In this document: positions 46,173-63,957 of the stretch, piece after piece | How positions within the stretch are numbered: the first letter of the stretch is position 1 | Layout: every line of letters starts with the position of its first letter | DNA from: an uncultured Clostridia bacterium | Lineage (GTDB): Bacteria; Bacillota; Clostridia; Christensenellales; CAG-314 | DNA length: 64,000 nt | NCBI GenBank assembly: GCA_947586855.1 | Contig: CANPXV010000008.1 | Span: 8,872-72,871, forward strand | Direction: 5' to 3' | Translations under genes and position numbers: made by a program | Notes under the pieces: model-generated | What the model saw: the letters and a program-made list of their open reading frames with translations, nothing else | Database searches by the model: none | Told to the model about the DNA's origin: nothing

Positions 46173-46215
46173 AAAACTTACCCCATATGCACTTTTTCGA
46201 CAAACACGCCCCACC

Positions 46216-46243
46216 GCACCTCGCCGGCGGGGCGAGCAGGGGA
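46216..46243 (+). repeat. Mosaic REP-like unit downstream of yyaC
   Basis: CACCTCGCCGGCGGGGCGAGCAGGGG, preceded by CTTACCCCATATG. Confidence 0.7.
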
Positions 46244-46325
46244 GATCGTCTCTCTGATGGGGCGAGATGAAAAAAAACCTGTATCGCCGCAAAGCGATAC
46301 AGGCATTGATTTTGCAAAAATCTCG

Positions 46326-47087: not shown

Positions 47088-47382
47088 CCGCCGCAGCCTT
47101 GGCCGCAGATAACTTCTTATACATTATATGATAGCATAAATCGGCGCAAAAATAAAGTATTTTGCAAAATTTGCGATATTTATCTTGTGCCGCCCGCCCG
47201 ACGGTCCTCTTTTGCAACGGGCGCAAAGGGCGCAAAAACCTACCCCATATATCAAAAACCCTACCCCATATGTCAATTTGAGAGATTTTTGCCGTCCAGC
47301 GGACGAGAAAATTTTATCCCGACAGGCTACGTTTAGACGTCGGGCGCATTGGGTACAATTATACAAAAAAAGGAGATCAAAA

Positions 47383-47976
47383 ATGAAATTAGCACAAAGT
47401 GAGACCTATCTTAACCTTGCAAAAGCCTTTTCGGCGGAGACGCAAGCCCGCACCCGATACGAGTTTATGGAGTACGGCATGCGCTACAACGGCTACAAAA
47501 CCATGGCGGAGATCGTTGACTCCATCGCCTATCAGGAGTTTAACCACGCACGCATGTTCTACACCTTTTTGCAAAAAGCCAGCGACAAGCCGATAGACAA
47601 CATCGACATCAGCGGCGGATTTCCCTTCAAGGAGAAGTGGGATATCCAGCAAAACCTCAAATTTGCCGCCGACGACGAGCACGCGGAAGCCTACGAAATC
47701 TACCTGCCCGCCGCAAAAATTGCCCGAGAGGAGGGCTTTGAGGACATCGCCGACCTGTTTGAGCTGACCGCCAAGGTAGAAATGCAGCACGAAAAAATAT
47801 TTTTGGAGCTATACGACCAGATGAAAAACGGCACCCTCTACAAAAAGGACAAAGAGGTTGTGTGGATGTGCTCCGGCTGCGGCCACATGGCAAGCGGCAA
47901 AGAGGCTTGGGACACTTGCCCCCTGTGCGGCGCCAAGCAGGGCACCGTTTGCCTCAAATTGCAAAGTCTGCAATGA
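47383..47976 (+). CDS. rbr: Rubrerythrin
   Basis: Ferritin-like E..H motifs (SAETQARTRY, QEFNHA, DDEHAE, KVEMQHE) and a C-terminal rubredoxin CSGCG..CPLCG. Confidence 0.88.
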   Translation: MKLAQSETYLNLAKAFSAETQARTRYEFMEYGMRYNGYKTMAEIVDSIAYQEFNHARMFYTFLQKASDKPIDNIDISGGFPFKEKWDIQQNLKFAADDEHAEAYEIYLPAAKIAREEGFEDIADLFELTAKVEMQHEKIFLELYDQMKNGTLYKKDKEVVWMCSGCGHMASGKEAWDTCPLCGAKQGTVCLKLQSLQ

Positions 47977-48112
47977 CTTTATAAACAAATTTTATAAATT
48001 ATCGGCAATTTGCGCAATTTTATAATTTATACATTATAATCTTGCCACTTGCACGGTTACAAAAACAGCGTTCCCGAACTTATTCGAGAACGCTGTTTGC
48101 GCAAATCAAATG

Positions 48113-48697
48113 TTATCTGCGGCGTTTTTTCTCGCTGCGATACACAAAATTGAGCGTTTTGCGGGGCGCATTGGGGCTGTTGAGAATGTCGTTTTTGGCG
48201 ATGGGCGTCACCACGACATGGCGTCCCGTGCCCTCGCCTTCGCTTTGGGTGGTAACGTACTTGCTACCCTGCAACGCCGTGTGTATGATGCGGCGCTCGT
48301 AGGGATTCATCGGTTCCAGCGAGGCCTGTTTGCCCGTGCGTTTTACCTTTTGTTCCAGATTGCTTGCCAGCCGTTGAAGCGCCTTTTCGCGCTTGGAGCG
48401 GTAGTTTTCGGCGTCCAGATTTACCCGTTTGAACTCGCCACTCTTGCCGTTGTGCATCAGGCTGCAAAGATATTGCAGTGCGTCCAACGTTTCGCCACGA
48501 TAGCCGATGGCCCCGGGTGCGTCTTCGCCCGCAATGCGCAGCAGCAGTGCGTCATCCTTGACAGAGGCCTCCACCCGGCAGTTTAGCCCCATTTTGGTCA
48601 GTACGGTTTGCAAAAAATCCACTACTTTTTGCTGTTCGCAGTCCGACGAGCTTTCCTCTGCGTCGCTTTCGGGCTGCAATTTGATATCATCACTCAT
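48113..48697 (-). CDS. jag: RNA-binding protein Jag/KhpB (KH plus R3H)
   Basis: R3H block LEPMNPYERRIIHTAL. It occupies the usual position downstream of yidC. Confidence 0.85.
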   Translation of the reverse strand: MSDDIKLQPESDAEESSSDCEQQKVVDFLQTVLTKMGLNCRVEASVKDDALLLRIAGEDAPGAIGYRGETLDALQYLCSLMHNGKSGEFKRVNLDAENYRSKREKALQRLASNLEQKVKRTGKQASLEPMNPYERRIIHTALQGSKYVTTQSEGEGTGRHVVVTPIAKNDILNSPNAPRKTLNFVYRSEKKRRR

Positions 48698-48701
48698 ATA
48701 G

Positions 48702-50042
48702 CTACCTCATATATTTGGCCTTGGCGGTGTTGTTCTTGACTTCGTCTCGGCTGATGCGTTTGAGCACCATTTTTTCCACGGGGTAGCGCAGCGCAACGGT
48801 AGACAAAATACTCAATGTGTAGTTTGTTACCATGTAGATTGCAAATGCGCCTGTGTAGATGAAGCCGAACCACGCCATCATCAAGGGCATGATTATCATC
48901 ATTGTTGTGTTTGTTACTTTTTGTTGCTGATTTTGTTCTACCACTTCGCCGCTGCGGTTTTTGCGTTCCATCCGCTGCGAAATGAACATGGACAGGAAAC
49001 TGAGGCCGATGGACAAAAAGGGCAGGATCATGAGGCCGTTCCAGCCGCCCTTGCCGTTGTAGCCGTCGCCCTCCAATACGGCATTGCGCAGTTTTTCGTA
49101 CAGCGTCTCGCCACCATCGGGAAAGTTTTTCATATTGATACTCTCTCCAAAGCCGCCGCCTTCAAACGTCCCGCCGGAGTAGGGCTGCATGACGTCCGCC
49201 CAGGTGTCGGGCTGCCAGACGTTTTTTATCCACAGCCAGCTTTCGTGATGGGTTGCGTAGTACTCCTTGGCAACCGCCAACGCAGCTTGGTCGGCGGCAC
49301 TGCACTTGGGGTTACTGCCCGTTTGATCCCGCTCGTAGCTGCGGGCCGCAAGCACGCCCTCGATTTGGCAGCGCAGTCTGTATTTCGGAACGTCCAATAG
49401 CTGCTCTTCCGTTTTGGATTCGTTGCCCGGATCGCTCTTTATCAGCGCCAACTCCTTGTTGTAGCCGCCTCTCATTCCGTAGCCGTTGTAGTACTTGTCG
49501 GCGAGGTCCTCGTCATCGAGAATTGCGGCAGAGTATGTTTGATAGTACTCGTCCGCCAATGCCTGAAAATTGGTGATACTGCTGTATGTTGAATAGTCTC
49601 GCAGGCCGGCAAACACAACAAAGAATATGATCATCGACACGATCATCGGCAAACAGGTGCCCATCATGCCCATGCCCTGTTTTTTGTACAGCTTTTGTTT
49701 TTCTTCGTTGGCACGCTGGGTGTTGGCGCCGTAACGTCTGTCGATACCCTCCATCAGAGGCTGCATTTGCTGCATTTTGAGGCTGCTTTTGCGTGCGGCA
49801 TACCGTTGCCAGATATCCAGCGGCAACATGATCAACTTCAAAAATACAGTAAACACAACTACCGTCCAGCCGTAGTTGCCTATCCAACTGTGCATCCACC
49901 TGACCAGCTTGCCCATGACGCCCAGATCGTCCTCGGAATATTGAAAGAAATCCGGTGCGGTGTTGTCGCAAGCCACAAAAACGCCCAAACAAAACACAGC
50001 CAATACAATAAGTATAAGTGCACTTTTGGTCTTTTTGTTCAT
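48702..50042 (-). CDS. yidC: YidC/Oxa1-family membrane protein insertase (long form)
   Basis: LPLDIWQ..MQ.LQP, ..GCLPMI.Q.PIF-like block (GTCLPMIVSMIIFF). Lies in the rnpA-yidD-yidC-jag context. Confidence 0.85.
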   Translation of the reverse strand: MNKKTKSALILIVLAVFCLGVFVACDNTAPDFFQYSEDDLGVMGKLVRWMHSWIGNYGWTVVVFTVFLKLIMLPLDIWQRYAARKSSLKMQQMQPLMEGIDRRYGANTQRANEEKQKLYKKQGMGMMGTCLPMIVSMIIFFVVFAGLRDYSTYSSITNFQALADEYYQTYSAAILDDEDLADKYYNGYGMRGGYNKELALIKSDPGNESKTEEQLLDVPKYRLRCQIEGVLAARSYERDQTGSNPKCSAADQAALAVAKEYYATHHESWLWIKNVWQPDTWADVMQPYSGGTFEGGGFGESINMKNFPDGGETLYEKLRNAVLEGDGYNGKGGWNGLMILPFLSIGLSFLSMFISQRMERKNRSGEVVEQNQQQKVTNTTMMIIMPLMMAWFGFIYTGAFAIYMVTNYTLSILSTVALRYPVEKMVLKRISRDEVKNNTAKAKYMR

Positions 50043-50066
50043 TTTTACTCCTGAAATGTCTCGGTA

Positions 50067-50309
50067 CTACACGTGCCACTTGATACTGCGCAATCGGGTG
50101 GGGACGGGATCGAAACCGCCCTTGCCCCAGGGCGCACACCTGCACAGCCGCTTGATTGTGAGCCAACTGCCCACCACAAATCCAAAACGGCTGTACGCCT
50201 CCATCGAATAGACCGAGCAGCTGGGTGTGTAGATGCACCGCTTGCCGCCCTTCCACTTGGATATGGTGGCCTTGTACAGTTTCAACAGCGCTATGGCGAT
50301 ATACTTCAT
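50067..50309 (-). CDS. yidD: Membrane protein insertion efficiency factor YidD
   Basis: C.Y.PSCS.Y...A....G...G..L...R..RC.P motif. Confidence 0.88.
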   Translation of the reverse strand: MKYIAIALLKLYKATISKWKGGKRCIYTPSCSVYSMEAYSRFGFVVGSWLTIKRLCRCAPWGKGGFDPVPTRLRSIKWHV

Positions 50310-50638
50310 TGCGTCAGCCCTGCCTTTTGCAGCAATTTGCCGACGCTATCCGCTATGTCGCCGTAGTTGTACGCCTCCTTTTTGCGAGGAATGAGCACCA
50401 GATTGTAGCCTGCGACTATCTGCGGCGCAAATGCCGACACCGCCGCCTTCATCTGGCGCCTGATACGATTGCGCTGCACTGCGTGCCCGTACTTTTTGCT
50501 GACGGAAAACCCTATCTTGCTGGGGTTGCTGTGCGCCGTGCAGTACAGCAAAATAAAATTTTTGTCCGCAACGCTTTGGGCGTGCTTGTACACGTAGTTG
50601 TACTGATAGTTTTTTTTGAGTCTGTATATAGACTTCAA
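50306..50638 (-). CDS. rnpA: Ribonuclease P protein component
   Basis: IGFSVSKK.G.AV.RNR.RR block. It lies immediately downstream of rpmH. Confidence 0.88.
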   Translation of the reverse strand: MKSIYRLKKNYQYNYVYKHAQSVADKNFILLYCTAHSNPSKIGFSVSKKYGHAVQRNRIRRQMKAAVSAFAPQIVAGYNLVLIPRKKEAYNYGDIADSVGKLLQKAGLTQ

Positions 50639-50650
50639 AGCTGCCCTCGG

Positions 50651-50785
50651 TTATGCGGAAATATGGTGACGACCCTTGTTTCTGCGTCTGGCCAGCGTCC
50701 TGCGGCCGCCGGTGGTCTTCATCCTGGCACGAAATCCGTGGACTTTGCTTCTCTGTCTCTTTTTGGGTTGGTAGGTTCTTTTCAT
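50651..50785 (-). CDS. rpmH: 50S ribosomal protein L34
   Basis: Hand-translated 44 aa: [44 protein letters not shown], with AAGGAGA upstream. It is below the ORF-track length cutoff. Confidence 0.95.
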
Positions 50786-51049
50786 TTTTCTGTCTCCTTA
50801 TGTCAGCGCCTTGGCGCCTTGTGATCCGTTGGGCCGCCGCAGCCGACGTGCACTTGGGCATAATCGACCACGATAGCATACAGTGATATTTTAGCAAACA
50901 ATCCCATATAAGTCAAGCAAAAACACCCCACCCGCCCGCCCCACACCGACAAGTCGGGCGATTTTTTTGCGCCCAAGCCCCGTGTGACAAATAGTGTCGT
51001 GACTTTTTGCGCCGTCATCTGTATAATGATAGTTGCAAGGAGGCACACA

Positions 51050-51541
51050 ATGAATTTCGGCGAAAAATTGAAACATCTCAGGCAACAAAACGGCCTCGCG
51101 CAGGAGGCGCTGGCGGACAAGCTGTTTGTAACTCGCACGGCCGTGTCCAAGTGGGAGACGGACAAGGGGCTGCCGTCGATTGACAGCCTGAAATTGATTT
51201 CGCAGCTGTTTGGCGTAAGCATGGACGAGCTGATTGGCGAGGGGGACATCGAAACGGGGCGGCGGCTGGAAGAAAAACGTGCCAGGGTGATGTACGGCAT
51301 TGCGCTGGGCTTTATTGCGCTGGCAACGGCGTTTGCACTGCTGGCGTATTTTTTGAAGCAGCCACTTTGGAGCGTCGGAGGGGCGGTTGCGGCGGCGATG
51401 TACGTGCTTTTTGGAGTGCTGTCCAAGCCACGGCACAGGCGATTTTCCGCCAAAAAGCTGTTGCTGCCCTACGTTTTTTCTCGCATAGTTGTTTTGCTGT
51501 TTGTGATTGGGCTGATATTGTTTACCGTGCTGACGATTTAG
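51050..51541 (+). CDS. XRE-family HTH regulator fused to a membrane domain
   Basis: LKHLRQQNGLAQEALADKLFVTRTAVSKWETDKGLPSI, then three hydrophobic helices. AAGGAGG lies upstream of the ATG at 51050. Confidence 0.8.
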   Translation: MNFGEKLKHLRQQNGLAQEALADKLFVTRTAVSKWETDKGLPSIDSLKLISQLFGVSMDELIGEGDIETGRRLEEKRARVMYGIALGFIALATAFALLAYFLKQPLWSVGGAVAAAMYVLFGVLSKPRHRRFSAKKLLLPYVFSRIVVLLFVIGLILFTVLTI

Positions 51542-54250
51542 CGCCCCCCCCCGCCAATCTGTCGTGGAAAATCAAAAATTGATTGCTCGATATATCCCCC
51601 GCAGACTTTCGAACAAAAAATAACTTTTACTTTTGTTCAAAAGTGTTTTTGCATTAAAAAGTGTGAAATACCTATTTGGCGCAGAATTTTACTGTTGCGG
51701 TTTTGGTGGGCGCAAGCGAAAATTTTATAAGCTACTTTTTAACACTATGTTATATTACTTTTGAACAAAAGTCTGCGCAATATCAACTGCAACCTGCGCA
51801 TATCGCACCATGCCCTGCCTTTCATCCCTACATCTCGCCCCCCCCCACCCACCTTTTTAGTCACCTCCGTCTCATTTACGATGGTCGCAACCATTTCTAT
51901 CGGTACTGCAGCCTTGCCACACACACGACTTATTTCAACAAAACCAGCCGCCAACCGTCGCCGCTCACTCCCGCCGAAGATCATAAAATTTAATATTTTT
52001 CCATTATCGCCTACCACACAATTTCCGACAAAACAAACTGCGCAACTCCACAAGCAAACTTTTATCGCCGAAATAAATATCGAACATTACAGTAGACGCC
52101 TTCTTCTAAAAAACCATTAAGTCATTTTATCGTAAAATATAACCCTCGTACTTTTCTCGTCGTCAATATTTTGACACAACCGAGGGTCAACCCATCAAAA
52201 AAAACACGCCGGACACGCAAGCTCGACACTCGTCACGTTGACTTCTCCAAAATAAGACGTTTCGACCATCCCTTTGCAATTTCCAATAAGTCGGCGCCAC
52301 GCAATATGCTATTTCAATCGACCACTTTGAAAAAATCACCAACGCAAGAAAAGGACACGTTTTGGAAGTAATGATTGGACATGAGACGCAAACCCGTCTC
52401 TTTTCCAAAAACATACTCCACTAAAACAATCCTATCAATTTGAGGAGCAACCATATCTTCCAATCAATAATTGTGAAAAACTGCCTGCCGCCGGAAGCTT
52501 AACCTTGCAAAAATGCATTTCTCATTCCTTTTTACAATTAAATTTCCGCATGGCAATCAGATCTTGTCATAGCAAACTCACCCACCACAAAAAAAATTGA
52601 ATACAGAAAACGGTTTATTGGGGCTCTCGTTTACACCCAACCCCAAAAGCAAAGCTCCTAACACAAAAATAATCTGAACGAACGAAGTTTATCCCAACAA
52701 AAACCGTACGGATACATCCTCAGATAAATCACAAGCGCATATAACTTGTGTGGGGAGGGCGCTACAAATGCGCTGCGTCAAATTTAAGTGTAAACCAGCG
52801 CAAGAAAATCTGAATACCCCTGGTCCATAACGCAAATGTTCCACGTGAAACAGTCGATTCGCAACAACATAACAATATGATTAATATCATCAATACTCAC
52901 ACCATTAGACAATTCGCACAATTCGCTCAAACCGACAGGCGTGGGCACCGCACGTCCAATCGCAAATATTTTTATCAAAGCAAAAACTGCTTTGCGCTAT
53001 TTTACCACAATCATCAAAAGCACCGGATTCAGTTGGGAAAATGTGCACAATATCGTTTCAGCACAAAAGCTGCGCATACATCGACAGGAAAGTTAAAAGT
53101 AACGAAAGTACATCACAGATAGGTATCTAAATCACAAAAAAAAGGACAACAATTAAAATTTGCCATTGCGGCCATCAACTCTCACTCCAAGAAAGCAACG
53201 CTCCCAAAATTTCTTTCGAAATAATCTACATATAACGAATTTTAGTTTGCGCCAAATTTTACTCTTTCGAACTTCTATAAAAAATCTTCGCACCTTATAG
53301 ATCAACGTAAAATGCCTTAAAGAACACCCCTCCGCACTTTTCCCGATTGCGATACATCAACCCACCTCAAACTATACGATATTTGTTAATTACACCCTAA
53401 TTACCAAATGTTTCACGTGAAACACATCTTAAACAATCGAACCTTATTCGTTCTTGGACAAATAGATCGCCATTTCGGCACATCTACCCACACAATTCTC
53501 AACGGTGTAGACAAAATACCCATAGAGCTTTGGCAACTTTGCAAAATTTCCCAAGCAAAGGAGCTTTGGCGAAAGTCCCGTCCAATCAAAAATCAATATA
53601 AACAATGGTCATTAACCCCGATAAACAAAAAAACAATACAGTAAATTTATCTTTGACTTCTAAAAATTATGTTATAAAATCTGTCTAAATGGGCCGTTTT
53701 AACAGAATTTTTTAGATCAATTTTTCAAAATTTCCGACCTAATAAAAACCCATTCTGTGTAATTTGAAGGATTTTTGTATAATTTAACTCATAGAACACG
53801 TCGCAAGACTCACACATCCATTGTCTTATCTACATATATGAACCGATAACACGACACACGGGATATCACAAAATGATTGCTAATGCGATAAAACCATTAG
53901 CGATGTTGCGTTTGATTTTTACAACAATTCCGGAGTCTACTTCCCATGGTGCATAGTCCGGACATAAATCATAAATCTTGAAAGTTTATGTGCGCCCACG
54001 AATAGATTAGTATTTTACTTGTAAAAAAGTCATAAAGCAACCAATATTTCAACTCATATCTCCTTCATTTATTGACGAATCGAATTACAAAAGAAAATTT
54101 TGACGCACGATCTCGCAGAAACGTTTCACGTGAAACATGTTGCCCGGCTTCACAAAATTCATTTCAAAAAGTTTGTGAAGATTTTTTTAGTGCCAACCTA
54201 TAAATGGCGGAATTATAGGGGCGCAGAAGAAATTTCTATTTGTTTTTATT

Positions 54251-54590
54251 GTGGCGCATACATAGAAATTATTTTTTTGAATCGCACAGGTATCAAAACT
54301 CGATTCTTTTAACAATACGGTTTTGAATAATGTGAATAAGTTATTTGTGTTATTGTGAGTATTAAGTGCAAAATCAATCTCTTTTTTTTTAATGTGACGC
54401 ATTACATAGAAATTATTTTTTGGTATCGCACAGACATTAGACTAAATTCTTTTACCAATACGGTTTTGAAATAATGCGAATAAGTTATTGTGTTGTTGCG
54501 AGTATTAAGTGCAAAATGGTGCAGTTGCTGTAATGTGATGGGCGCATTCAAATTTTGTTATAGATAAATGCAAAATTGTTTGTAAAAATT
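54251..54590. repeat. Tandem repeat of about 143 bp (two full copies plus a diverged third)
   Basis: GTGGCGCATACATAGAAATTATTTTT..ACGGTTTTGAATAATG.GAATAAGTTATT.GTGTT.TTG.GAGTATTAAGTGCAAAAT is seen at 54251 and 54394. A third start, GTGATGGGCGCATTC, is at 54535. Confidence 0.8.
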
Positions 54591-55358
54591 TGGCGCAGGG
54601 TGAAGCTTTTGTTGTTTCGTCAATAATATATTGGGCGCCTTCATCTTTTGTTGTAGATAAATGCAAAGTGCATGGGGCGCAAAAATTTTTGTATTTTTGC
54701 CGGAGCAAGATAACGTTGTATGCACTCAGTCACATTCCAACATTGTTCTGATTATAATCAGATTGGCAAGTGTCGGCTGCATTGTTGTTTGTCTCTGTAT
54801 TGCCCGGGATGACCGCCCGTTTTGATAAATCATGGTTTATGTCCGACCGTCATATTTATATTCAGAAATAATTTTTTGGAGAAAAAGATTGTTGGCGGCG
54901 AAAAAGACAATATAAGCAATTTTACGTTTCTATTTCAAGCATTTTCATATACCCCTTATTATTTGTTGCAAGATGGATCAGATGTAAATGTAGCAGCAAC
55001 ACTTTTCTTGATTCGATTGCGGAATTACAATTTTGCCAAAATTACATTCTTCGGCTGCTGCTCATTTTCCCGAAATACAAGTTTTTCGCAAGGCGCAGAC
55101 GGTTATTATTTCGGCGAGTTGTTAGCGCCGATTGGCAGGACGTCTCTGCGCCCGCACGCTAAATATCCGGCTTTGTGTTTTTTCGAGATGTTATAGATTA
55201 GGCTGGTCCATAGAAAAATTTTATAAGTTATGTTTTTATGACAAAATTTTCTATTAAGGGCTACACTTAAAAAGGGAGGTTCATATGATGCTCCGATATA
55301 AATGTTTGCTGAAAAACAATTGTGTGCGAGGAGATCTATATGGGGGAATTGCCAAACC

Positions 55359-55585
55359 AAGTACAACACCGAGAAAGAAGTTCAAAATAGTGCAACACTT
55401 AAGGAGAAGGTCAAAATAGCGTAGCACTCAAAGAAAAGTTAAAATAGTGCAGCACTTAGAAAGAAGTTTGAGTAGTGCGACCCTTCGAGAGAAGTTCGGA
55501 GTGGCGCACCACTTGAAGAGAAGTTCAAAATAGTGTAGCACTCAAAAAGAATTTTAAAATTTTGCAACACTTAGAAGGAAGTCCA
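55359..55585. repeat. Iteron array: seven to eight head-to-tail 28/29-bp units, consensus AAGTTCAAAATAGTGCAGCACTTARAAAG
   Basis: Unit boundaries fall at 55378, 55407, 55436, 55464, 55492, 55521 and 55550. Each unit carries the palindromic core AGTGC.GCACT. There are no intervening spacers. Confidence 0.85.
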
Positions 55586-55692
55586 TTAAATAAACCTATA
55601 GTTGTATGCTGCTATATCGTTGGCGAAGTTTATAAGCTGATGTTTAATTAAGGCAGAATGCCTACAAATTTATACCGATTCTACTGGCGATT

Positions 55693-55881
55693 GTGGGCGG
55701 TTTGCTTGGGGTTGTAATTTACTTTACCAACCCGGAAATGATTTTCAATGCAGAAAACATTTGGATTGCTTTGGGGGTCGGAATAGTCATTGGGGCATCT
55801 TCTACTGGGGCGAATCAAATCATAAAACAGTTGTTTCCGCAGCAAAATGATGTTAATTCGAAAGATAAAGACGATAATTAA
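55693..55881 (+). CDS. Holin-like small membrane protein, probably 5'-truncated
   Basis: One to two TM segments and a charged tail (SKDKDDN). The frame is open upstream to 55648 with no ATG; only a GTG at 55693. The terminator AAATGGCTTAAA..TTTAAGCCATTT lies downstream. Confidence 0.4.
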   Translation: MGGLLGVVIYFTNPEMIFNAENIWIALGVGIVIGASSTGANQIIKQLFPQQNDVNSKDKDDN

Positions 55882-55951
55882 AGAAAATATTACAAATGGC
55901 TTAAATTCAACTTTAAGCCATTTGTAGTGTTAGTGTTTTGAATTTTTTCAA

Positions 55952-56356
55952 TTATTTAAAATCGTATCCTAATAGTCCGATTGCGTCTTCTGAATTTGTT
56001 GTTATCAAGATTTTTCCAAAGCGTACCAATTTTTGTTCTGTGCTTATTTCTTGATAGTAATCGTACATTTGTTTTGCTTGTTTTTCTGTTTTGTACTCCT
56101 CAAATACTATATTGTTAACTTTGTTGATTAGCAAGCCGTAGTGATTAATGAGCTCTACTGAAAAATTCTTGTCGGCCCGTGAAAGTTCCCAATTTATTGT
56201 TTCATTGGCATTTTGCAGTGTTTCCTCATCATTTTCAATATATGTTTCAAATCCGGCTTCTTTTAAGCGAGCTATATCGTTAGCTACATCTTTATCCCAA
56301 GTATAATCAGGGGTGCATGCACCCAAAATAAGTGTAATTGCCATTAAAATCACCAT
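55952..56356 (-). CDS. Low-GC lipoprotein, hypothetical (the start region looks frameshifted)
   Basis: Lipobox LILGAC. The best RBS/ATG pair (GGAGGAcattATG at 56376) is one nt out of frame. Confidence 0.5.
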   Translation of the reverse strand: MVILMAITLILGACTPDYTWDKDVANDIARLKEAGFETYIENDEETLQNANETINWELSRADKNFSVELINHYGLLINKVNNIVFEEYKTEKQAKQMYDYYQEISTEQKLVRFGKILITTNSEDAIGLLGYDFK

Positions 56357-57254
56357 TAAAAAACTGTTTTTTTCATAATGTCCTCCATAAATCAATAATA
56401 TCATAGTCACCTATTTATGTCAATATATTGGTTTTTTGGCAGTTTCGTACTTTTCTCTGGTCAGACATTGATCAACGCTAGTTTTTTTTCACCGATGGCC
56501 CTCGCTCCATCTTTTTCATTTTGGATAGAATTTTCTCTTATATCTTGTTCAGATTCTCATTTGTCCCTTTCTGCCGGGCACAGAACGGAATCTACAAAAA
56601 CATATTGCAGTTTTATGCAGCCCCTCTCCCTCTCCAATTGGCAAACTCACTCCCTCGGCCGCAATATGCTTTTGACGCTTCTTTGAGAAATTCAAATAGA
56701 ATTTTAACAAAATTTCAGATTTAGAAAACTGTCGGAAATTGAATTTTTATTATTGTTTTGGCGTGGTGGCACAAGGCTTAGATACGGCTAACTTAGCAAG
56801 ATTTTGGGTTCAAAAAAATTGTGGGCAATCCGATCTTCTATCAACGCTTTTGGGAATGCCGGCAAAAAGCTTGGTTACGGAGAGTCGGGCAAAAATTTTA
56901 CAACTGGTTTTAGTTTTAATAGGTAAATCGTAAGTAAGTTGCAGGGCGCAGTGGAGCGAGATGTGGGGGGCTTGCTCTTTCTAAAAAGGTAAAACATTGG
57001 TTATTGCCCGTAAAAAAGATTGATAAATCTTCAAACTTTGGCCACACGACCATTTTGCAAAGCTTGATTTAGCGGTTGAGTTATGTCTGACATAGGTGCA
57101 ACCTCGTAATGCAACGGATGTCGCAGTAAATATCCACCGGCTTGGCCGATGGCTTTACAAAAGAGGGTAAAACCCTCTGTTGCGGCTACATAAAATACGT
57201 TGTGGCGTTCGCTTCGCTCGGCTGAACGTGTTTTGTGAGCGCAGCTGTCTTGCG

Positions 57255-57659
57255 TTAGCGAACCGGCCTGTCTTTCGCAAACGGGTCGTTTACCTCAAAT
57301 AGACTCATTTGCTCCATTCGCTTATCTTCGCTAAGTTGGTTCGCTATGTATTCTTTTATCTTTTTCGTATTCTTACCGACTGTGTCGACACAATATCCTC
57401 TACACCAAAACTCTCTGTTTCGGTACTTAAATTTGAGATTTCCGAATTTTTGGTATATTATTACACTCTTTTGCCTTTCAAAAATCCCATAAATCCCGAA
57501 ACGCTCATTTTCGGCGGTATCTTTACACACATGTGACATAATCGGGCACACTTCCGCTACAATTATTTCTACTATTTTCCATATGATTTTTTTTGTTAAA
57601 CGCCCCTCCTTTTTTTCCACGCCAACGAAAATCGTAGGATTTTCGCCAAACAACAGCAC
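57255..57659 (-). pseudogene. tnpA: IS200/IS605-family TnpA (Y1 transposase) pseudogene
   Basis: The C-terminal half is intact (FGNLKFKYRNREFWCRGYCVDTVGKNTKKIKEYIANQL). The conserved block HMCVKIPPKMSVSGFMGFLKGK is readable only in another frame. The first HUH histidine is replaced (CPDY..). Confidence 0.8.
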
Positions 57660-57895
57660 AATTGATTTAGCAGTGAGATATTAGCAGTGTGGCTTAAACA
57701 ATATAACTTGCAAAGAATAAAAACAACAAAAAGCTGGCGGTTTGCAAAGTGTCAAAAAAAAGATTGACAGAGGCACAAAAAGCCCATTATGTAATGTATG
57801 TGAGTGGATGTGGGTGGATCTGGGTGGCGGTTTACAAAACACACCCAAAATCTTAACCGGGAAATGACGGTGGTTTGCAAAGTGTCAAAAAATGA

Positions 57896-57924
57896 TTGAC
57901 AGAAATCCGAAGTCGTACTACAAT
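57896..57924 (+). promoter_or_regulatory. Sigma-A-type promoter of the marR operon, overlapping an inverted repeat
   Basis: TTGACA, a 17-nt spacer, then TACAAT. The -35 element is part of TGTCAAaaaatgaTTGACA. Confidence 0.7.
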
Positions 57925-57956
57925 TAAAATACGAAATAGGATTTTCGGAGTGAAAT

Positions 57957-58415
57957 ATGGACGAACGAACATTTTTTTGCAGGCTGGGGAGGCTCATTTA
58001 TCAAATCGACGGCGCCTACGAGCAGTACGGCAAGGGCTGCAAACTAGGCTCGCCCAACCTGCTGTGGATCCTCTACGCTCTCAACGACGGCGAGCGCCAC
58101 AGCCAAAAGCAGATCTGCGAGGATTGGGACATCCCCCGCAGCACGGCAAACACCATCATCAAGGATTTGGAGAACAAAAACTATGTGGCCCTGTCGCAAA
58201 TCAAGGGAGAGCGACGAGAGCTACTTGTTTCGCTGACGGACAGCGGCAAAAAATATGCCGACGGTATCCTCGGCGACCTCTATAAGCGAGAAAAGGAGGT
58301 TTTTTCGGAGATCGAGCGGCCCAACGAGCTGCTTGATGCACTGCAAAATCTGTCGGCAAAAATACAAAAAATCGCCGCTCTAAAATCGAGTGACGGAAAG
58401 AAAGGCAAAAAGTAA
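57957..58415 (+). CDS. MarR-family transcriptional regulator
   Basis: Winged-HTH block SQKQICEDWDIPRSTANTIIKDLENKNYVAL....GERRELLVSLTDSGK. Confidence 0.85.
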   Translation: MDERTFFCRLGRLIYQIDGAYEQYGKGCKLGSPNLLWILYALNDGERHSQKQICEDWDIPRSTANTIIKDLENKNYVALSQIKGERRELLVSLTDSGKKYADGILGDLYKREKEVFSEIERPNELLDALQNLSAKIQKIAALKSSDGKKGKK

Positions 58416-58792
58416 AGGTAGGTTTCACCCCTTACCTCAATGCCGATATACGGCGAGCGGAATAACGAAATAATTTATCCTAACCCTAACCCGAAAGACC
58501 CTGAACCTATGGGTATAGCAAAACGTGTGCGACACGACAAAAAAGACAATTTCGAAGAAAAACCGTTGCCGTGAAAGTACCCGAAAAAATAAGCATAAAA
58601 AAAAAGAAACGCATCCACAAGAGGCATTACCCTCTCGCAATGTCCGCCTTTACGGCTTCTTGCGTTTCGTATAGATATTTTAACACGAAAAATTGCAAAA
58701 ATCAACGGATTTTAAACGGTCCATTCCCGCTATATGACAGATGCCTACCAGTTAGGCAAAAACATCAAAAATCAATAAAAGGAGATTTGGAT

Positions 58793-59545
58793 ATGGAAAA
58801 AATCACACAAAATGCCGGCAGAAAGGCGCTGGGCGAGTTCGCCCCCGATTTTGCGCACTTCAACGACGACGTCCTCTTCGGCGAAAATTGGAACAACCCC
58901 GATATCGACCACAAAACACGCTGCATTGTCACCGTTGTGGCGCTGATGTCGTCGGGCATCACTGATAGTTCGCTGCGCTACCACCTGCAAAACGCCAAAA
59001 ATGCAGGCGTCACCCGATCGGAAATCGCCGCAGTCGTCACGCACGTTGCGTTTTATGCAGGCTGGCCCAAGGCGTGGGCGGTGTTCAACATGGCAAAGGA
59101 CGTCTGGGCGGAAGATGTTGCCGATACGGCAAAGGCGGCGCACGCAAACGCTATGATCTTCCCAATCGGTGCGCCCAACGACGGTTTCCGTCAATATTTC
59201 AGCGGACAAAGCTATCTCGCCCCAATTTCCAAGGGGCAGGTCGGCATTTTCAACGTCACGTTCGAGCCGTCCTGCCGCAACAATTGGCACATCCACCACG
59301 CAACAAAGGGCGGCGGACAAATTCTCATCTGCGTTGCGGGGTGCGGCTGGTATCAGGAGTGGGGCAAAGCGGCCGTCAAAATGCAGCCTGGGGATTGCGT
59401 CAACATCCCCGAGGGCGTCAAGCATTGGCACGGCGCAGCAAAGGACAGCTGGTTCTCTCACCTCGCCATCGAAGTCCCCGGCGAAAACGCCTCAAACGAG
59501 TGGTTGGAGCCTGTTGCGGACGAGGAATACGATAAACTTTCGTGA
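58793..59545 (+). CDS. Carboxymuconolactone decarboxylase-family / cupin fusion protein
   Basis: AGGAGA lies upstream of the ATG at 58793. The CMD part reads HFNDDVLFGENWN..LD.KTR..VTVVAL; the cupin part reads NNWHIHHATKGGGQILIC..G..P.G.KHWHGA. Confidence 0.75.
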   Translation: MEKITQNAGRKALGEFAPDFAHFNDDVLFGENWNNPDIDHKTRCIVTVVALMSSGITDSSLRYHLQNAKNAGVTRSEIAAVVTHVAFYAGWPKAWAVFNMAKDVWAEDVADTAKAAHANAMIFPIGAPNDGFRQYFSGQSYLAPISKGQVGIFNVTFEPSCRNNWHIHHATKGGGQILICVAGCGWYQEWGKAAVKMQPGDCVNIPEGVKHWHGAAKDSWFSHLAIEVPGENASNEWLEPVADEEYDKLS

Positions 59546-59580
59546 GGTCGGCAATGCGCCGATCGCGGCGGCGGTGAAAA

Positions 59581-60138
59581 ATGACAAAATCAAGATATAT
59601 TTTGCTTGTGGTACTGCTTATCTGCCTATGCCTCTTGGCGGCATGTATAGATGATGACGCACCGATCGAGCAACCGAACAAAAGCCCAACTCAACAGCCC
59701 AATGGGCAGCCAAGTAAAGATAATACAGGCTGGCAACCGAGTAGGCAGCCCGACAAGTCGGACGAGGGAACGATGACAGAAAAGATCTATTTTACCATCA
59801 ACCAAAACAAATTTGCCGTCACTTTGGAAAAAAATTCGGCGACGAAAGCACTTGTGGAACTTTTGAAGAGCGGCAACATCACCTACATCGCCGACGACTA
59901 CGGCGGATTTGAAAAGGTAGGCGGTTTGGGACATACACTTCCTCGCAGCGACAGGCAGCTCACCACACAGGCGGGCGACGTGATGTTGTATCTGGGCAAT
60001 CAGATTGTTATGTTTTACGGCAGCAACTCGTGGTCCTACACCAAACTGGGCAAAATCGAGGGCTACTCGACGCAACAACTGCGCACATTACTTGCAGCAG
60101 GCAGCGGCACCGTCACCGTGACAATAAGTTTGGATTGA
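59581..60138 (+). CDS. Lipoprotein with cyclophilin-like fold domain
   Basis: Lipobox LLAAC. The block F.V.L..N..A..L...L....I....YGGFEK.G.L...LP......T...GD..LY.GN.IV.FYG is typical of the cyclophilin-like family. Confidence 0.65.
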   Translation: MTKSRYILLVVLLICLCLLAACIDDDAPIEQPNKSPTQQPNGQPSKDNTGWQPSRQPDKSDEGTMTEKIYFTINQNKFAVTLEKNSATKALVELLKSGNITYIADDYGGFEKVGGLGHTLPRSDRQLTTQAGDVMLYLGNQIVMFYGSNSWSYTKLGKIEGYSTQQLRTLLAAGSGTVTVTISLD

Positions 60139-60384
60139 ACGCTACACCTCACCGATGGGCGGGTAGGGGATAGACAGACAAGACATACGCACAGCCAACT
60201 TGGTGTTTTCTGATAATGTAAATAATATAACTTAAAATGTACAAGAAACAATATTAAAAATCTTTACTTGTACACAAAATGTCAAAATCCAAAATCGCCC
60301 GACGGCGAGTGTTGTCTCGCAAAGGCTGAGATGAAACATGAAAAAGAATATCGGCAACAAATTTGCATTTTATCCCACGCCTGT

Positions 60385-60831: not shown

Positions 60832-60859
60832 GTTTTCTTTGATTGATTTGTTGTTGATA

Positions 60860-60893
60860 CCACCTCGCCGCACCTCGCCGGTGGGGCGAGCAG
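60860..60893 (+). repeat. Mosaic REP-like units
   Basis: CACCTCGCCGCACCTCGCCGGTGGGGCGAGCAGAGC. Confidence 0.75.
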
Positions 60894-61658: not shown

Positions 61659-62765
61659 CTAAACGATCTGTTTTACGGGCAGGATAAAGTACAGCACCTC
61701 GTCGCTATCCTTGATAGTGATAACGCAGCTGTTGTGTTGGGCAAACTCCATCTTGATGGTCTCGGCGGAGATAACTTTGAGGCAGTCATTGATGTATTTG
61801 CTGTTGTATGCGCACCTCACGTCCTTGCCCGTCAGCGATATGGTGATATTTTCCTTGGCGGTGCCGTATTGGCTGGTGGAGGAGATGTTCATGTTGTACT
61901 CTTCGATGTCCAGCACCACAAGGTTGTTCTTTTCACTGCGAGACATGATGGACGCCGTGCTAAGCGCTTTTTCAAAGGTCTCCTTGTTGACGTACAGCGT
62001 GGTCAAAAAGTCTCTCGGCACAATGTTGTCGTACTTGATGTATTGTCCCGCCAGCAAACGGGTAAGCAGCCGAGTGTTTTCCAGACATATCATCAGGTAG
62101 TTGTTTTCGATGTACACTTTCAGCACATTGTCGCTGTCGCCCAGCAGCTTGGATAGTTCGGACAGGCTGCGGGAGGGGATGGTGGCGGAAATGTAGTCCA
62201 CACGCTCTTCCAGCACCTTTTTGCTCATGGCAAAGCGGTAGCCGTCGGTGGCAACGGCGGATAGAGTGTACTCCTTGGCCTCAAAAAACACGCCTTTCAG
62301 CATGGGGCGGCTGTCGTCGGTGGCCACGGAGAATATCACGTTGTTGATGATGTCCTTCAAGTTGGTCTCGGTCACGGCAAAATAGTTGCTGTTGCCGATA
62401 TTTTCCGTCTCGGGGTAGTCCTCCACATCCAGCGTGCCGATGTTGCACTCGCTGTTGGCCGAGCTTACCAGCAGGCGGTTTTCGTCCGTCATTTCCAGCG
62501 AGATGTCGCTGCCGTTTTCGGCTATATTGCGGATGTAGTCGCCAAAAATGCGCCCCGGCACCAAAAAGGAGCCGCCCACGATCACATTGGCGTCTATTGT
62601 GCGCTCTATGGCAAGGTCCTTGTCGGTGGCGTACAGCGTCAGGCGGTCGTTTTCCGCAGTGACTTTGATACATTCCAGCACGGGCGCAACTTCCTTGTTG
62701 GCAAGCGCCTTGGATACCTTGCTTACGGCGTCGTTGAGATCTAAGCTGTTTACAATGATTTTCAT
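61659..62765 (-). CDS. dnaN: DNA polymerase III beta subunit (sliding clamp)
   Basis: 368 aa starting at the ATG at 62765 (GGAGAAACC upstream). Three-domain pattern: MKIIVNSLDLNDAVSKVSKA...LECIKV..., LTLYATD...A, LLAGQYIKYDNIVP. Confidence 0.9.
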   Translation of the reverse strand: MKIIVNSLDLNDAVSKVSKALANKEVAPVLECIKVTAENDRLTLYATDKDLAIERTIDANVIVGGSFLVPGRIFGDYIRNIAENGSDISLEMTDENRLLVSSANSECNIGTLDVEDYPETENIGNSNYFAVTETNLKDIINNVIFSVATDDSRPMLKGVFFEAKEYTLSAVATDGYRFAMSKKVLEERVDYISATIPSRSLSELSKLLGDSDNVLKVYIENNYLMICLENTRLLTRLLAGQYIKYDNIVPRDFLTTLYVNKETFEKALSTASIMSRSEKNNLVVLDIEEYNMNISSTSQYGTAKENITISLTGKDVRCAYNSKYINDCLKVISAETIKMEFAQHNSCVITIKDSDEVLYFILPVKQIV

Positions 62766-62795
62766 GGTTTCTCCTTTTCCGCTGTGCGGATACAC

Positions 62796-62992
62796 TGTGG
62801 ATATCCCTTCTTCGGGTAGTAGTGTTGTTGGGCGATGTGAAATTGTGTATTTGTGGCCGATAACGGTGTCTTCCAACAAGATTTTGTGGCGCAAACGGGC
62901 GTTTTGCCCAACATGTTGTGTTATGCCACAAATAATTTGTGTGGACATCTCGCCCCAAAATCCCCGACAAAAAGTGTATCGATTGTGGACAA
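62796..62992 (+). promoter_or_regulatory. Cluster of DnaA-box-like 9-mers upstream of dnaN (candidate oriC segment)
   Basis: TGTGGATAT (62796), TGTGGACAT (62940) and TGTGGACAA (62984), compared with the consensus TGTGGATAA. Weaker TGTGGCCGA/TGTGGCGCA sites are also present. An AT-rich tract lies at 63050-63105. Confidence 0.45.
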
Positions 62993-63157
62993 GCCCTTTT
63001 GGGGCAGTTTTGCGCCGCCGTCGGATACGCTTTTGCAAAGCCCTATACGCTACAATTATACTATATATTACTTCAAATTGCAAGATATAAAACAACATTT
63101 CCGTATGTCACTGCCAATTTGGAGTAAACAAGCGGCGGCCGCAAACAAAGTTCACTC

Positions 63158-63186
63158 TTGACAAGCGGCGGCATTGCATTTATAAT
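63158..63186 (+). promoter_or_regulatory. Sigma-A-type promoter of deoD
   Basis: TTGACA, a 17-nt spacer, then TATAAT, 60 nt upstream of the ATG. Confidence 0.7.
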
Positions 63187-63246
63187 GAAAAGTGAGGGAA
63201 AAATATCCCCCACACAACATCACAACCAAAGGAGACAACAAAAATC

Positions 63247-63957
63247 ATGTCAATCCCCACCCCTCACATTGCCGCCAAGGCGGGAGATTTTGCACCTACC
63301 GTACTTATGCCGGGCGATCCGCTGCGCTCCAAGTACATTGCAGATCACTATCTGGATAACGCCGTGCTTGTAAACAACGTGCGCGGAGTGCAGGGCTACA
63401 CAGGCTACTACAAGGGCAAACGTGTATCCGTCATGGCCAGCGGAATGGGCATCCCGTCCATCGGCATTTACAGCTACGAGCTGTTCAACTTCTACGACGT
63501 GCAAAACATCATTCGTATCGGCTCGGCCGGTGCCATCCATCCCGACCTCAAAGTGCGTGATCTGGTGTTTGGGCAAGGCTCCTGCACCAACAGCGACTAC
63601 GCCCGTCAATTTGGCATGCCGGGCACCTTGGCGCCCATTTGCAGCTACGACCTGCTGGAAAAGGCCGTCGCCAAGGCCAAAGAGCTGGGCTTCCGCTACA
63701 AAGTGGGCAACGTGCTTGCCAGCGACACCTTCTACGACGACGGCGGCAGCAGCGCTGTCTGGGGCAAAATGGGTGTGCTTGCCGTGGAAATGGAAAGCGC
63801 CGCCCTCTACCTCAACGCCGCCAGAGCCGGCAAAAACGCATTGTGCATTTGCACCATATCCGACCACCTGCTGACGGGCGACGTGCTGTCCAGCGAGGAA
63901 CGTCAAAACTCCTTCAACGACATGATGGTGCTTGCGCTGGAAATCGCCCCTTGCTGA
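63247..63957 (+). CDS. deoD: Purine nucleoside phosphorylase, DeoD type
   Basis: TPHI.A..GDFA..VLMPGDPLR.KYIA, GMGIPS and VEMESAAL blocks are colinear with E. coli DeoD. Confidence 0.92.
   Translation: MSIPTPHIAAKAGDFAPTVLMPGDPLRSKYIADHYLDNAVLVNNVRGVQGYTGYYKGKRVSVMASGMGIPSIGIYSYELFNFYDVQNIIRIGSAGAIHPDLKVRDLVFGQGSCTNSDYARQFGMPGTLAPICSYDLLEKAVAKAKELGFRYKVGNVLASDTFYDDGGSSAVWGKMGVLAVEMESAALYLNAARAGKNALCICTISDHLLTGDVLSSEERQNSFNDMMVLALEIAPC

Follow-up and report, generated by a model that had tools for sequence, protein, structure and literature searches.

A gene-free region with clustered parS sites and mirrored strand composition beside rpmH in an uncultured gut Clostridia genome

What is the function of 3.7 kb of DNA that carries no gene, lies beside rpmH and is opposite in strand composition on its two sides? 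The locus belongs to a 64-kb stretch of DNA from an uncultured gut Clostridia bacterium, which was analyzed as a whole and is called the window here. The original prediction had described a gene desert at 51542–55284 with no ORF above 124 codons, and this is confirmed. The longest ORF within it has 124 aa (54822–55196, +) and the longest stop-free stretch in any frame has 127 codons; 3.7-kb windows that do not overlap the low-GC block around the desert contain stop-free stretches of at least 226 codons, usually more than 290. The same sequence is present at 99.9–100% identity in three independent ENA assemblies and in several Logan assemblies, and is therefore not an assembly artefact. We propose, with moderate confidence, that the desert is an origin-proximal partition (centromere-like) region of the chromosome.

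The desert lies in the interval that separates rpmH-rnpA-yidD-yidC-jag from dnaN. Both dnaN and deoD are intact in the window, as confirmed by Pfam. The low-GC block is wider than the desert, extending from about 51.6 to 57.9 kb, and beyond 55.3 kb it contains fragments of a holin gene and of an IS200, along with a gene for a small lipoprotein. A search of the window and of the desert translated in six frames found neither a DnaA Walker motif nor a Bac_DnaA match, and no parAB genes lie within the 64 kb. In relatives, a ParB_N+HTH_ParB protein and ParA are encoded about 8 kb from rpmH, in the rpmH/dnaN neighborhood, and in the relative L012 a distance of 6.6 kb, occupied by dnaN and other genes, separates dnaA from rpmH. 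Homologues of the XRE-type regulator that borders the desert were considered as a route to homologous deserts and dropped, as they occupy unrelated contexts. A TGTTATATT −10-like element sits amid the operator-like palindromes next to this gene, and together they may form a putative promoter, as judged by eye. Coordinates are collected in Table 1.

Table 1. Positions of the features of the desert and its surroundings, numbered from the start of the window.
Feature	Position	Strand	Evidence or remark
rpmH (ribosomal protein L34), left landmark	50651..50785	−	Translation matched by motif search
XRE-type HTH regulator, hydrophobic C-terminus, last gene before desert	51050..51541	+	Pfam HTH_3, E 7e-15
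Operator-like palindromes ACTTTYGWWCAAAAGT at 51604, 51629, 51757	51600..51777		Inverted repeats I3, I4
Left arm: non-coding, A+C-rich, G-poor on + strand	51780..53650		A+C 0.60–0.63 throughout
parS-1, TGTTCCACGTGAAACA	52837..52852		1 mismatch
parS-2, TGTTTCACGTGAAACA, perfect palindrome	53409..53424		0 mismatches
Conserved non-coding core, ~125 nt, between parS-2 and parS-3	53661..53788	+	blastn and alignments
DnaA-box-like TTATCTACA	53826..53834	+	One mismatch
parS-3, CGTTTCACGTGAAACA, at skew switch	54122..54137		1 mismatch
Right arm: non-coding, G+T-rich, C-poor on + strand	54200..55284
143-bp tandem repeat, 2 copies	54235..54517	+	Each copy opens with GGCGCA/GACGCA motif
Further DnaA-box-like sites	54331–54339 and 54652–54660	−	One mismatch
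~93-bp repeat, 2 copies	54531..54667	+	Carries GGCGC(A/C)
Tandem array, 29-nt unit, 7.2 copies, just outside desert	55376..55582	+
Phage holin fragment	55693..55881	+	Pfam Phage_holin_5_2, profile positions 31–76 only
IS200-type Y1 transposase fragment	57255..57659	−	Pfam Y1_Tnp, profile positions 75–121 only
dnaN-deoD intergenic DnaA-box-like sites	62760..63250		2 boxes with ≤1 mismatch vs 0.18 expected, P 0.016

The desert bears no trace of genes. Period-3 power is at null level in every base (sum 1.5–5.7 versus a gene median of 32), and its six-frame translations, with stops as X, gave no Pfam match at E up to 1. As a decayed gene, the region shows neither codon periodicity nor similarity to proteins or unmutated DNA. 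Exact-protein look-up placed homologues of the longest arm ORF in the same species only. Rfam returned nothing in the desert at gathering score and only chance-level matches at E up to 1; the sole two matches of the window at gathering score are tRNAs at 10.4 and 15.3 kb. Folding of both left-arm strands revealed no exceptional stability (z −1.8, −2.2, −0.6 and +0.2), and blastn in distant mode against 50,697 phage and 72,556 plasmid records found no match to the region. Other accounts of the arms were also rejected. For an ancient inverted duplication, the inverted matches are short and not colinear. Decayed parS arrays would leave degenerate sites or half-sites, and these are not in excess. 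A polar oligomer (Chi- or KOPS-like) shared by the G+T-rich strands of all arms came down to composition-driven T-run and G words.

Chromosomal parS is a 16-bp palindrome with the consensus TGTTNCACGTGAAACA (PMC7022226). Three sites with 0–1 mismatch to TGTTTCACGTGAAACA are found inside 1.3 kb of the desert, where shuffles predict 0.01, and these are all of the parS copies in the 64-kb window. They coincide with a 14-bp palindrome that had been pointed out earlier; its three copies are real, but it had not been recognized as parS, a known element. A match to a known element was what the original prediction had set against its own account, so this identification touches that account and changes the picture. 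By sequence the palindromes are canonical chromosomal parS sites and predicted ParB-binding sites. Sites of this kind cluster near origins.

The mirrored composition holds in both size and polarity when windowed GC and AT skew are computed, with a coherent switch, and the four 60-nt lines that had been counted by hand were exact on recount. Base fractions are A.350, C.268, G.136, T.245 in the left arm (51780–53650) and A.284, C.147, G.206, T.363 in the right arm (54200–55284), compared to A.242, C.266, G.260, T.232 in the remainder of the window. GC skew is −0.33 (z −9.0) on the left and +0.16 (z +3.2) on the right, and AT skew is +0.18 and −0.12, respectively. Outside the region, GC skew in 1.8-kb windows has an sd of 0.041 and ranges from −0.115 to +0.066. 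The switch, located at about 53.8–54.2 kb by the cumulative GC-skew minimum and the A+C=0.5 crossing and centred near 54.0–54.1 kb, includes parS-3 at 54122, the third palindrome, where it had been predicted. Read 5′→3′ on the outward strand of each arm, the main component of the skew is an apparent loss of cytosine.

Ordinary replication skew is insufficient to account for the arms. Four-fold degenerate sites of the flanking genes have the same composition on + and − strand genes; ordinary replication asymmetry is thus near zero in this genome and cannot by itself yield a |GC skew| of 0.33. A neutral equilibrium under replication bias was rejected on the same sites, which are GC-rich (~0.78) and strand-symmetric. 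Replication skew at neutral sites of Firmicutes usually combines G>C with A≥T (RT negative; PMC2099444), unlike the desert, where G>C is paired with T>A. Gene orientation in the window is mixed, and 64 kb is too short to judge a chromosome-wide asymmetry switch. The skew may be caused by diverging forks, diverging transcription or selection. The suggestion of a bidirectional origin is supported indirectly, by the rpmH/dnaN setting that is classical for oriC, the parS sites, a mild DnaA-box enrichment and a distant analogue described below. The strand symmetry of the four-fold sites speaks against it.

A conserved core lies close to the switch. It is built of an invariant TGTTATAAAA, an inverted repeat AATTnTGTTAnAA / TTnTAACAnAATT and the blocks TTTCGACC and CATTCTG, and occurs also in four related Clostridia genomes, L012, L021, L014 (E 4e-11) and L023 (E 2e-7) (sequence model R1), each time within ~700 nt of parS sites. 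The core is unmatched in Rfam, and its pattern was not found in a metagenome scan. DnaA boxes (TTATCCACA) with ≤1 mismatch number 3 in 53400–54700 versus 0.49 expected (P 0.016), none of them perfect; at ≤2 mismatches there are 9 at the switch versus 5.9 expected (P 0.13). The box pair upstream of dnaN, 9 kb away, is as significant as the boxes at the switch, and this dnaN-deoD intergenic region, as judged from its boxes, may be an alternative or second part of oriC. DnaA boxes are not enriched in the related deserts L012 and L021, and neither an unwinding element nor a DnaA-trio was identified in the region.

A second strain, L195, was reached by exact-protein look-up of the XRE regulator, YidD and the arm ORF, which led to members of the same species only. 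It is about 4% diverged and retains all three parS sites and the skew, with the same composition in the left arm. Divergence from L195 is uneven, at 8.4% in 51600–51777 versus 1.0–1.2% on either side, and at 12.6% with many indels in 54200–54873, and the GCGCA motifs of the 143-bp repeat are kept. The locus has thus had this composition for a long time and keeps it stably, which a recent burst of mutation does not explain. Beyond the species, the 51.05–60.8 kb segment lacks a syntenic counterpart in relatives, and the junction upstream of rpmH is a rearrangement hot spot. Among 5.8 billion proteins, the nearest relatives of YidC reach only 71% identity, and the DNA upstream of rpmH is different in them. 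Comparison of rpmH-proximal loci, proposed earlier as a check, does find intact genes adjoining rpmH in relatives, but the deoD, dnaN or giant ORF found there are not ancestors of the desert. AT-rich, ORF-free parS clusters are present in L012, L021 and L023, and parS clusters also in L014. Skew is weak or mixed in the related deserts, and L023 has an A+C-rich arm of opposite polarity.

An independent analogue of the mirrored pattern comes from a very distant Firmicute, L118, with a YidC 29% identical. Its locus is also upstream of rpmH and reads LuxS, an A+C-rich arm, four parS sites with DnaA boxes, a TfoX gene, a G+T-rich arm and rpmH-rnpA-yidD-yidC-jag, with a skew polarity matching that of the desert. 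One perfect and four near-perfect DnaA boxes are interleaved with parS at its switch (5 versus 0.36 expected). Such a pattern is rare. Of 70 parS clusters, only the window and L118 show strong mirroring, with the two largest left–right A+C differences (+0.186 and +0.158), and 0.22% of the positions in ~1.5 Mb have a switch of that size. Mirrored skew as a general property of parS clusters was rejected, since the mean difference is ~0, with 28 positive and 40 negative. Among metagenomic parS-pair loci of at least 4 kb, 47 of 50 have less than 800 nt of ORF-free DNA around the sites.

If the desert is a partition region, established ParABS biology suggests how it would work. ParB dimers would be loaded as CTP-dependent clamps at the three parS sites and move out over the gene-free arms on either side, where they would build the partition complex and recruit SMC. 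The arms might then be unconstrained or lightly constrained spacer DNA, a step we propose more cautiously. Their skew could arise from forks that diverge at the centre, were this oriC or part of oriC, or from outward transcription beginning there; the polarity fits either.

Other explanations address the origin of the DNA or of its composition. The region could be left over from a mobile replicon, such as a prophage, a plasmid or an integrative element, that had its own centromere and iteron-like origin and lost its genes; the skew would then come from the donor, which might have replicated in a strongly asymmetric way. We regard this as unlikely, but it has the surroundings on its side. The GC content of the region is 0.31–0.44, whereas host genes have ~0.78 at their four-fold sites, the right-hand neighbors are the holin and IS200 fragments, the 143-bp, 93-bp and 29-nt tandem repeats and repeated GCGCA units recall such elements, parts of the region are hypervariable between strains, the segment is missing at the same position in relatives, and an IS200 adjoins rpmH in a close relative. 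With no syntenic counterpart and a rearrangement hot spot at the junction, the arms may be of foreign origin. Against a relic stand the chromosomal type of the parS sites, a core common to the chromosomal deserts of four related species, arms devoid of any kind of coding relic, and L118, a very distant lineage in which this architecture is found again beside the same chromosomal landmark. A relic prophage or replicon, one of the earlier suggestions, is partly supported, and for the neighborhood only (holin and IS200 fragments, repeats); the phage and plasmid records yielded no match.

A burst of strand-specific cytosine deamination, by a deaminase toxin or on an ssDNA intermediate, of formerly GC-rich and possibly coding DNA had also been suggested, and we consider it highly improbable. 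The arithmetic behind it holds for the left arm, where G is down.124 and A up.108 relative to background with C and T equal, but the right arm shows no pure C→T shift, as G is also lower and A higher. The lack of period-3 signal extends to bases that deamination would leave unaffected, Pfam is unmatched, and blastn with G/A- and C/T-collapsed sequences against the window and 58 related origin-region loci gave shuffle-level matches only, where a positive control with a simulated 50% G→A change scores 933 bits. No dinucleotide context signature was seen. Both strains share the composition, and left-arm differences from L195 are C/T in 11 cases and A/G in 5, with A/G not in excess. Deamination is largely refuted for coding or locally derived DNA. 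Another explanation, which we consider improbable, is that long non-coding transcripts diverge from a bidirectional promoter in the core, with the displaced non-template strand (R-loops possible) gaining C→T and the outward strands becoming G+T-rich. An excess of C→T on coding strands is known, and the polarity agrees with it. Judged by eye, one strand of the core has the invariant TGTTATAAAA and the opposite strand TGTTAAAAC/T or TGTTAGAAT. A promoter-like site is present at 53653–53680 (+), and the centre of L118 has strong back-to-back promoters (12/12 and 10/12). However, G+T richness on the right begins only at ~54.15 kb, 400 nt downstream of the core, the minus-strand −10 of the window lacks its final T, and the orientation of the core fails to predict the arm polarity of L023. 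Copies of the right-arm tandem repeats differ by A/G in 13 cases and C/T in 6, a balance that does not favor C/T and so does not show ongoing C→T change on the + strand. Selection for a polar composition is a doubtful possibility. The G-poor strand would read toward the parS cluster, giving an inward RNA that is C-rich, G-poor, unstructured and an ideal Rho substrate, and the arms would be transcription insulators that protect the ParB complex or origin. Rho favors C-rich, G-poor RNA. Inward-reading RNA would have C.27 and G.14 on the left and C.21 and G.15 on the right, left-arm RNA of the + strand has a weak fold that does not surpass shuffled sequence (z −1.8, −0.6), L118 shows the same polarity, and the operator-flanked −10-like element (51745–51772) faces the left arm, as judged by eye. 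The left arm is 1.2% diverged from L195, compared to ~2.0% at synonymous sites and 5–12% in adjacent non-coding DNA, but the difference between the first two values is within counting error (22 and 8 substitutions). The case is one of composition. In array 1 of L128 the G-poor strand is the one facing away from the neighboring gene, and the arm of L023 reads outward into a gene.

Returning to the partition region, a broader proposal, rather doubtful at present, is that some Clostridia have a distinct origin and centromere architecture, a kilobase-scale gene-free module beside rpmH without dnaA, with parS and sometimes DnaA boxes at the junction of functional, polar, cytosine-depleted arms. Such arms might act as Rho-dependent insulators of the ParB complex, or they might be transcribed outward, form R-loops easily and so help to open or prime the origin, and the ~125-nt core would be a control element. 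A skew of mutational cause would make the locus a natural reporter of strand exposure time near a bacterial origin or partition complex. A selected skew would point to an unrecognized polar DNA or RNA feature by which the origin region is organized or insulated. In either case this is a concrete, testable locus in uncultured gut Clostridia with a rearranged origin region, in which dnaA lies apart from dnaN and rpmH.

The desert resembles several known systems in part. It shares with chromosomal ParABS of the Bacillus subtilis type (ParB/Spo0J) the same 16-bp palindrome, its clustering and an origin-proximal gene neighborhood, and relatives of the present genome likewise encode ParA and ParB nearby. 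In model organisms parS sites are mostly inside genes or short intergenic regions; here they lie in 3.7 kb of ORF-free DNA, with an extra conserved core and strongly skewed arms. The desert is like the Firmicute rpmH-dnaA-dnaN oriC (bipartite, as in B. subtilis and C. difficile) in its adjacency to rpmH, its AT-richness, some DnaA-box-like sites and a switch of origin polarity, and L118 comes closer with clear DnaA boxes at its switch. It differs in lacking dnaA, which is elsewhere in the clade, in its weak box cluster and in being several times longer. Partition and origin regions of plasmids and phages (F sopC, P1 parS, iteron origins) are likewise non-coding, repeat-rich, AT-rich and beside mobile-element debris, but the desert has no rep or par gene, its parS is of the chromosomal type and it has no similarity to such records. 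Strand asymmetry from replication or transcription (GC or keto skew) has the same polarity, with G>C and T>A on the outward or 'leading' strand and cytosine loss as the main part, whereas the skew of the desert is local to arms of 1–2 kb and far stronger than that of the surrounding genome. As in Rho utilization (rut) regions, inward RNA from either side would be C>G and poorly structured. Regions of the rut type span tens to about a hundred nucleotides, unlike the 1–2 kb of the arms. Both oriC and parS/ParB centromeres are textbook elements that are usually short and have genes close around them. In the present locus the centromere sites occupy several gene-free kilobases together with a further conserved element, and the extreme, mirror-symmetric strand composition is found again beside rpmH in a very distant lineage.

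The gene-free desert next to rpmH (51542–55284) does not code for protein. As originally noted, it holds no ORF longer than 124 codons, the longest on either strand being 124 aa. Its longest stop-free stretch is 127 codons, whereas 3.7-kb windows clear of the low-GC block all reach 226 or more, most of them above 290. Period-3 spectral power, which is independent of the genetic code and includes the bases spared by a G→A process (C and T on the plus strand of the left arm), is at null level for all four bases across 51.6–55.2 kb (sum 1.5–5.7 versus a gene median of 32 in the window). Six-frame translations of the desert had no Pfam match at a cutoff of E 1. Rfam gave nothing there at gathering score and chance-level matches only at E up to 1, and folding of the left arm on both strands was no better than that of shuffles (z −1.8, −2.2, −0.6, +0.2). 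Three ENA assemblies made from different samples, and several Logan assemblies, carry the desert at 99.9–100% identity, so it is not an assembly artefact.

GC content in the desert is 0.31–0.44, against ~0.52 around it. GC skew is −0.33 (z −9.0) in the left arm and +0.16 (z +3.2) in the right arm, and AT skew takes the opposite sign in each. The standard deviation of GC skew across 1.8-kb windows outside the desert is 0.041, confirming the claim that the skew is stronger than normal; the four 60-nt hand counts behind it were all exact on recount. The switch is coherent, as the cumulative minimum and the A+C = 0.5 crossing both fall at ~53.8–54.2 kb. A poly-C tract at 51838, at the left end of the left arm, is length polymorphic between strains (C9 or C8).

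Features of the desert and its surroundings, with divergence from L195, a diverged strain of the same species
Feature	Window coordinates	Content or composition	Divergence from L195
Left flank		rpmH, rnpA, yidD, yidC, jag, ftsH and an XRE-type regulator	1.0% (rpmH–XRE)
Operator region	51542–51779		8.4%
Left arm	51780–53650	A.350, C.268, G.136, T.245	1.2%
Centre			5.1%
parS sites	52837, 53409, 54122		
Conserved core	53661–53788	invariant TGTTATAAAA; inverted repeat AATTnTGTTAnAA / TTnTAACAnAATT; more invariant blocks	
Right arm	54200–55284	A.284, C.147, G.206, T.363	12.6%, numerous indels
GGCGCA/GACGCA motifs	54102–54680, 55092; also 51678, 51709	one orientation throughout the right arm	
36-aa ORF, then 29-nt tandem array	55285–55582	7.2 copies, consensus AGAAGTTCAAAATAGTGCAACACTTAAAG	
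Right flank, nearest		holin fragment, small lipoprotein gene, IS200 fragment	
Right flank, beyond IS200 fragment		MarR-like, CMD, cyclophilin-like and GNAT genes, then dnaN, deoD	
10-nt unit near MarR promoter region	57798–57827	ATGTGGGTGG	copy number varies between strains
34-nt repeat	1971–2004(−), 2341–2374(+), 21712–21745(−), 36076–36109(+), 61299–61332(+)	CTCACCGGCGAGGTGGCCCCACCGGCGAGGTGCG	
Rest of window		A.242, C.266, G.260, T.232	

The palindrome GTTTCACGTGAAAC forms the core of TGTTNCACGTGAAACA, the chromosomal parS site at which ParB/Spo0J binds and loads (PMC7022226). With up to two mismatches allowed, the whole window contains exactly three such sites (0.01 expected), all inside the desert, and their identity as parS is shown. 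AT-rich, ORF-free parS clusters also occur at other places in the origin regions of related species (L012 18581–20785, L021 15988–17812, L023 15340–17408), and parS clusters are present in L014 and others too. Searches with blastn, then alignment, revealed an element of ~125 nt common to these clusters and the window. A sequence model of this core matches L014 (E 4e-11) and L023 (E 2e-7), and in both cases parS lies within about 700 nt. The desert centre, unlike the segment surrounding it, is not lineage-specific. Read by eye, the core could be a palindromic protein-binding site or an outward-firing pair of extended −10 promoters. Our preferred reading, held with about even confidence, makes the desert a ParB/parS partition region near the origin that contains a conserved core. 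By established ParABS biology, ParB would load at the three sites and spread from them, and SMC would be recruited.

The nearest relatives of this uncultured Clostridia bacterium are rabbit-gut MAGs, with YidC identity of at most 71% and DnaN identity of about 92%. Their gene order is parB-parA-mnmE-mnmG-rsmG-dnaN-deoD-rpmH, and their rpmH-proximal locus has no desert, deoD lying ~260 bp from rpmH. In the clade, deoD sits between dnaN and rpmH in an orientation that varies by species, the dnaN-deoD block of the window (61.6–64.0 kb) being inverted relative to L007, and dnaA is sited apart from dnaN and rpmH (L007, L006, L012, L021, about 6–9 kb; window 61.6–64.0 kb). No part of 51050–60831 has a syntenic counterpart in relatives. 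Because neighbours at rpmH differ, this synteny is absent and dnaA lies elsewhere, the junction upstream of rpmH is a hot spot of rearrangement, and at this position all 10.8 kb of the segment are specific to the lineage. In the closest relatives by YidC (71%), a giant ORF of at least 962–1627 aa, truncated by the contig end, lies directly upstream of rpmH/rnpA (L197 2–3737, L198 2–4885, L199 2–2890); in L197 an IS200 transposase intervenes.

Divergence from L195, whose alignment spans 50742–54873, is strikingly uneven along the locus. Synonymous divergence is about 2.0%, so the left arm does not outpace silent sites. Hypervariability is confined to the operator region and the right arm with its repeats, and there the GCGCA motifs are kept. 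Most GGCGCA/GACGCA motifs, after which an AAATTTT-like run usually comes within about 10 nt, are retained in L195 amid the surrounding right-arm divergence, and may serve as a protein-binding motif.

The polarity of the mirrored skew is that of an origin or of divergent transcription, and its main component is cytosine loss on the outward strand. Strand-biased deamination of formerly GC-rich genes, one of the explanations proposed originally, fits the left arm arithmetically but is not supported, codon periodicity and protein similarity both being absent. Searches with G/A-collapsed (left arm) or C/T-collapsed (right arm) alphabets against the rest of the window and 58 related loci gave only shuffle-level matches, while a native gene with simulated 50% G→A change was recovered at 933 bits. 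Right-arm tandem-repeat copies differ by A/G 13 times versus C/T 6, which lends no support to C→T change still under way on the outward strand. The mirrored skew is old and stable, because the L195 arms have the same composition and few left-arm sites differ (22/1871; C/T 11, A/G 5).

Diverging forks, with the desert centre as oriC or part of it, are a possible cause. Four-fold sites of flanking genes are GC-rich (0.63–0.84) and equal between strands (plus, C.427/G.339; minus, C.438/G.341), so replication-linked bias of the genome is close to nil. Ordinary replication asymmetry is accordingly not enough by itself, and in composition the desert also differs widely from host sites free of constraint. 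The largest four-fold-site G effect in one survey was about 0.43, and the Firmicute leading strand tends to A≥T (PMC2099444); the T>A of the desert arms is atypical. Transcription outward from the core also fits the polarity and is possible; so is selection that keeps inward transcripts G-poor (Rho insulation). The arms may also be of foreign, mobile-element origin; phage and plasmid records showed no similarity to the desert. Decayed parS arrays are rejected, since degenerate sites and half-sites are not in excess. Nor is mirrored skew general to parS clusters: in 70 of them, drawn from related genomes and from scanning a metagenome for parS pairs, left-right A+C differences average about 0 (28 positive, 40 negative). 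L023, with an A+C-rich arm of opposite polarity running into a gene, warns against any single simple rule.

Several further features were observed. Four-fold GC of 0.63–0.84 in window genes generally (e.g. 43389–51541, 57957–63957) compares with genomic GC of 0.41–0.49 in related species, and silent sites of this lineage seem to have moved strongly toward GC. The GC-rich 34-nt interspersed repeat (five copies versus 0 expected, one between the GNAT gene and dnaN) is internally a direct repeat of CACCGGCGAGGTG and looks like a REP-type element of the host genome. The 29-nt array, directly upstream of the phage holin fragment and preceded by an ORF with a good ribosome-binding site, is non-coding because its period is not a multiple of three; it may be iteron-like. 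A lower-GC gap at 35122–36143, between a nuclease-like gene (34087–35121, −) and an AraC-like regulator (36144–37355, −), has only weak, small ORFs (up to 106 aa), a local A+C switch of +0.16 at 36150 and one REP-like copy. Elsewhere, L134 has 15 parS sites within 1 kb (1044–2027), and a dnaA-like gene (Walker motif at 3593) lies ~1 kb downstream of them. The metagenome contig L128 (ODTK01003963.1), from an organism of higher GC, carries 29 parS sites in two ORF-free arrays (1–1950 and 4650–6229; top strand G-poor, with A+C 0.55–0.75) flanking an old-yellow-enzyme gene and a bile-acid:sodium symporter-like gene. As in the window, parS lies in strongly skewed non-coding DNA, but the L128 arrays are direct, not mirrored.

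The closest analogue is L118, from a Firmicute with YidC only 29% identical, which together with the window has the two largest left-right A+C differences of the 70 clusters (+0.158 and +0.186, respectively). Its order is LuxS, an A+C-rich arm (A+C.59–.64), four parS, a small TfoX_N gene, a G+T-rich arm (C only 5–11%) and rpmH-rnpA-yidD-yidC-jag, and its centre has back-to-back promoters (12/12 and 10/12). In both loci, mirror-image arms meet at parS upstream of rpmH and dnaA is absent, so the shared architecture arose or persisted in two very distant lineages. DnaA boxes are interleaved with the L118 parS sites (one perfect and four one-mismatch; 5 versus 0.36 expected) and mark the switch, whereas the signal at the window switch is weak (3 versus 0.49 expected, P 0.016) and comparable to that upstream of dnaN. 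A literature search of limited coverage found no paper describing a gene-free parS region with a conserved core and mirrored arms. parS and oriC are already known; what is new is a gene-free setting on the kilobase scale, together with the conserved core and with extreme mirrored arms that recur at rpmH.
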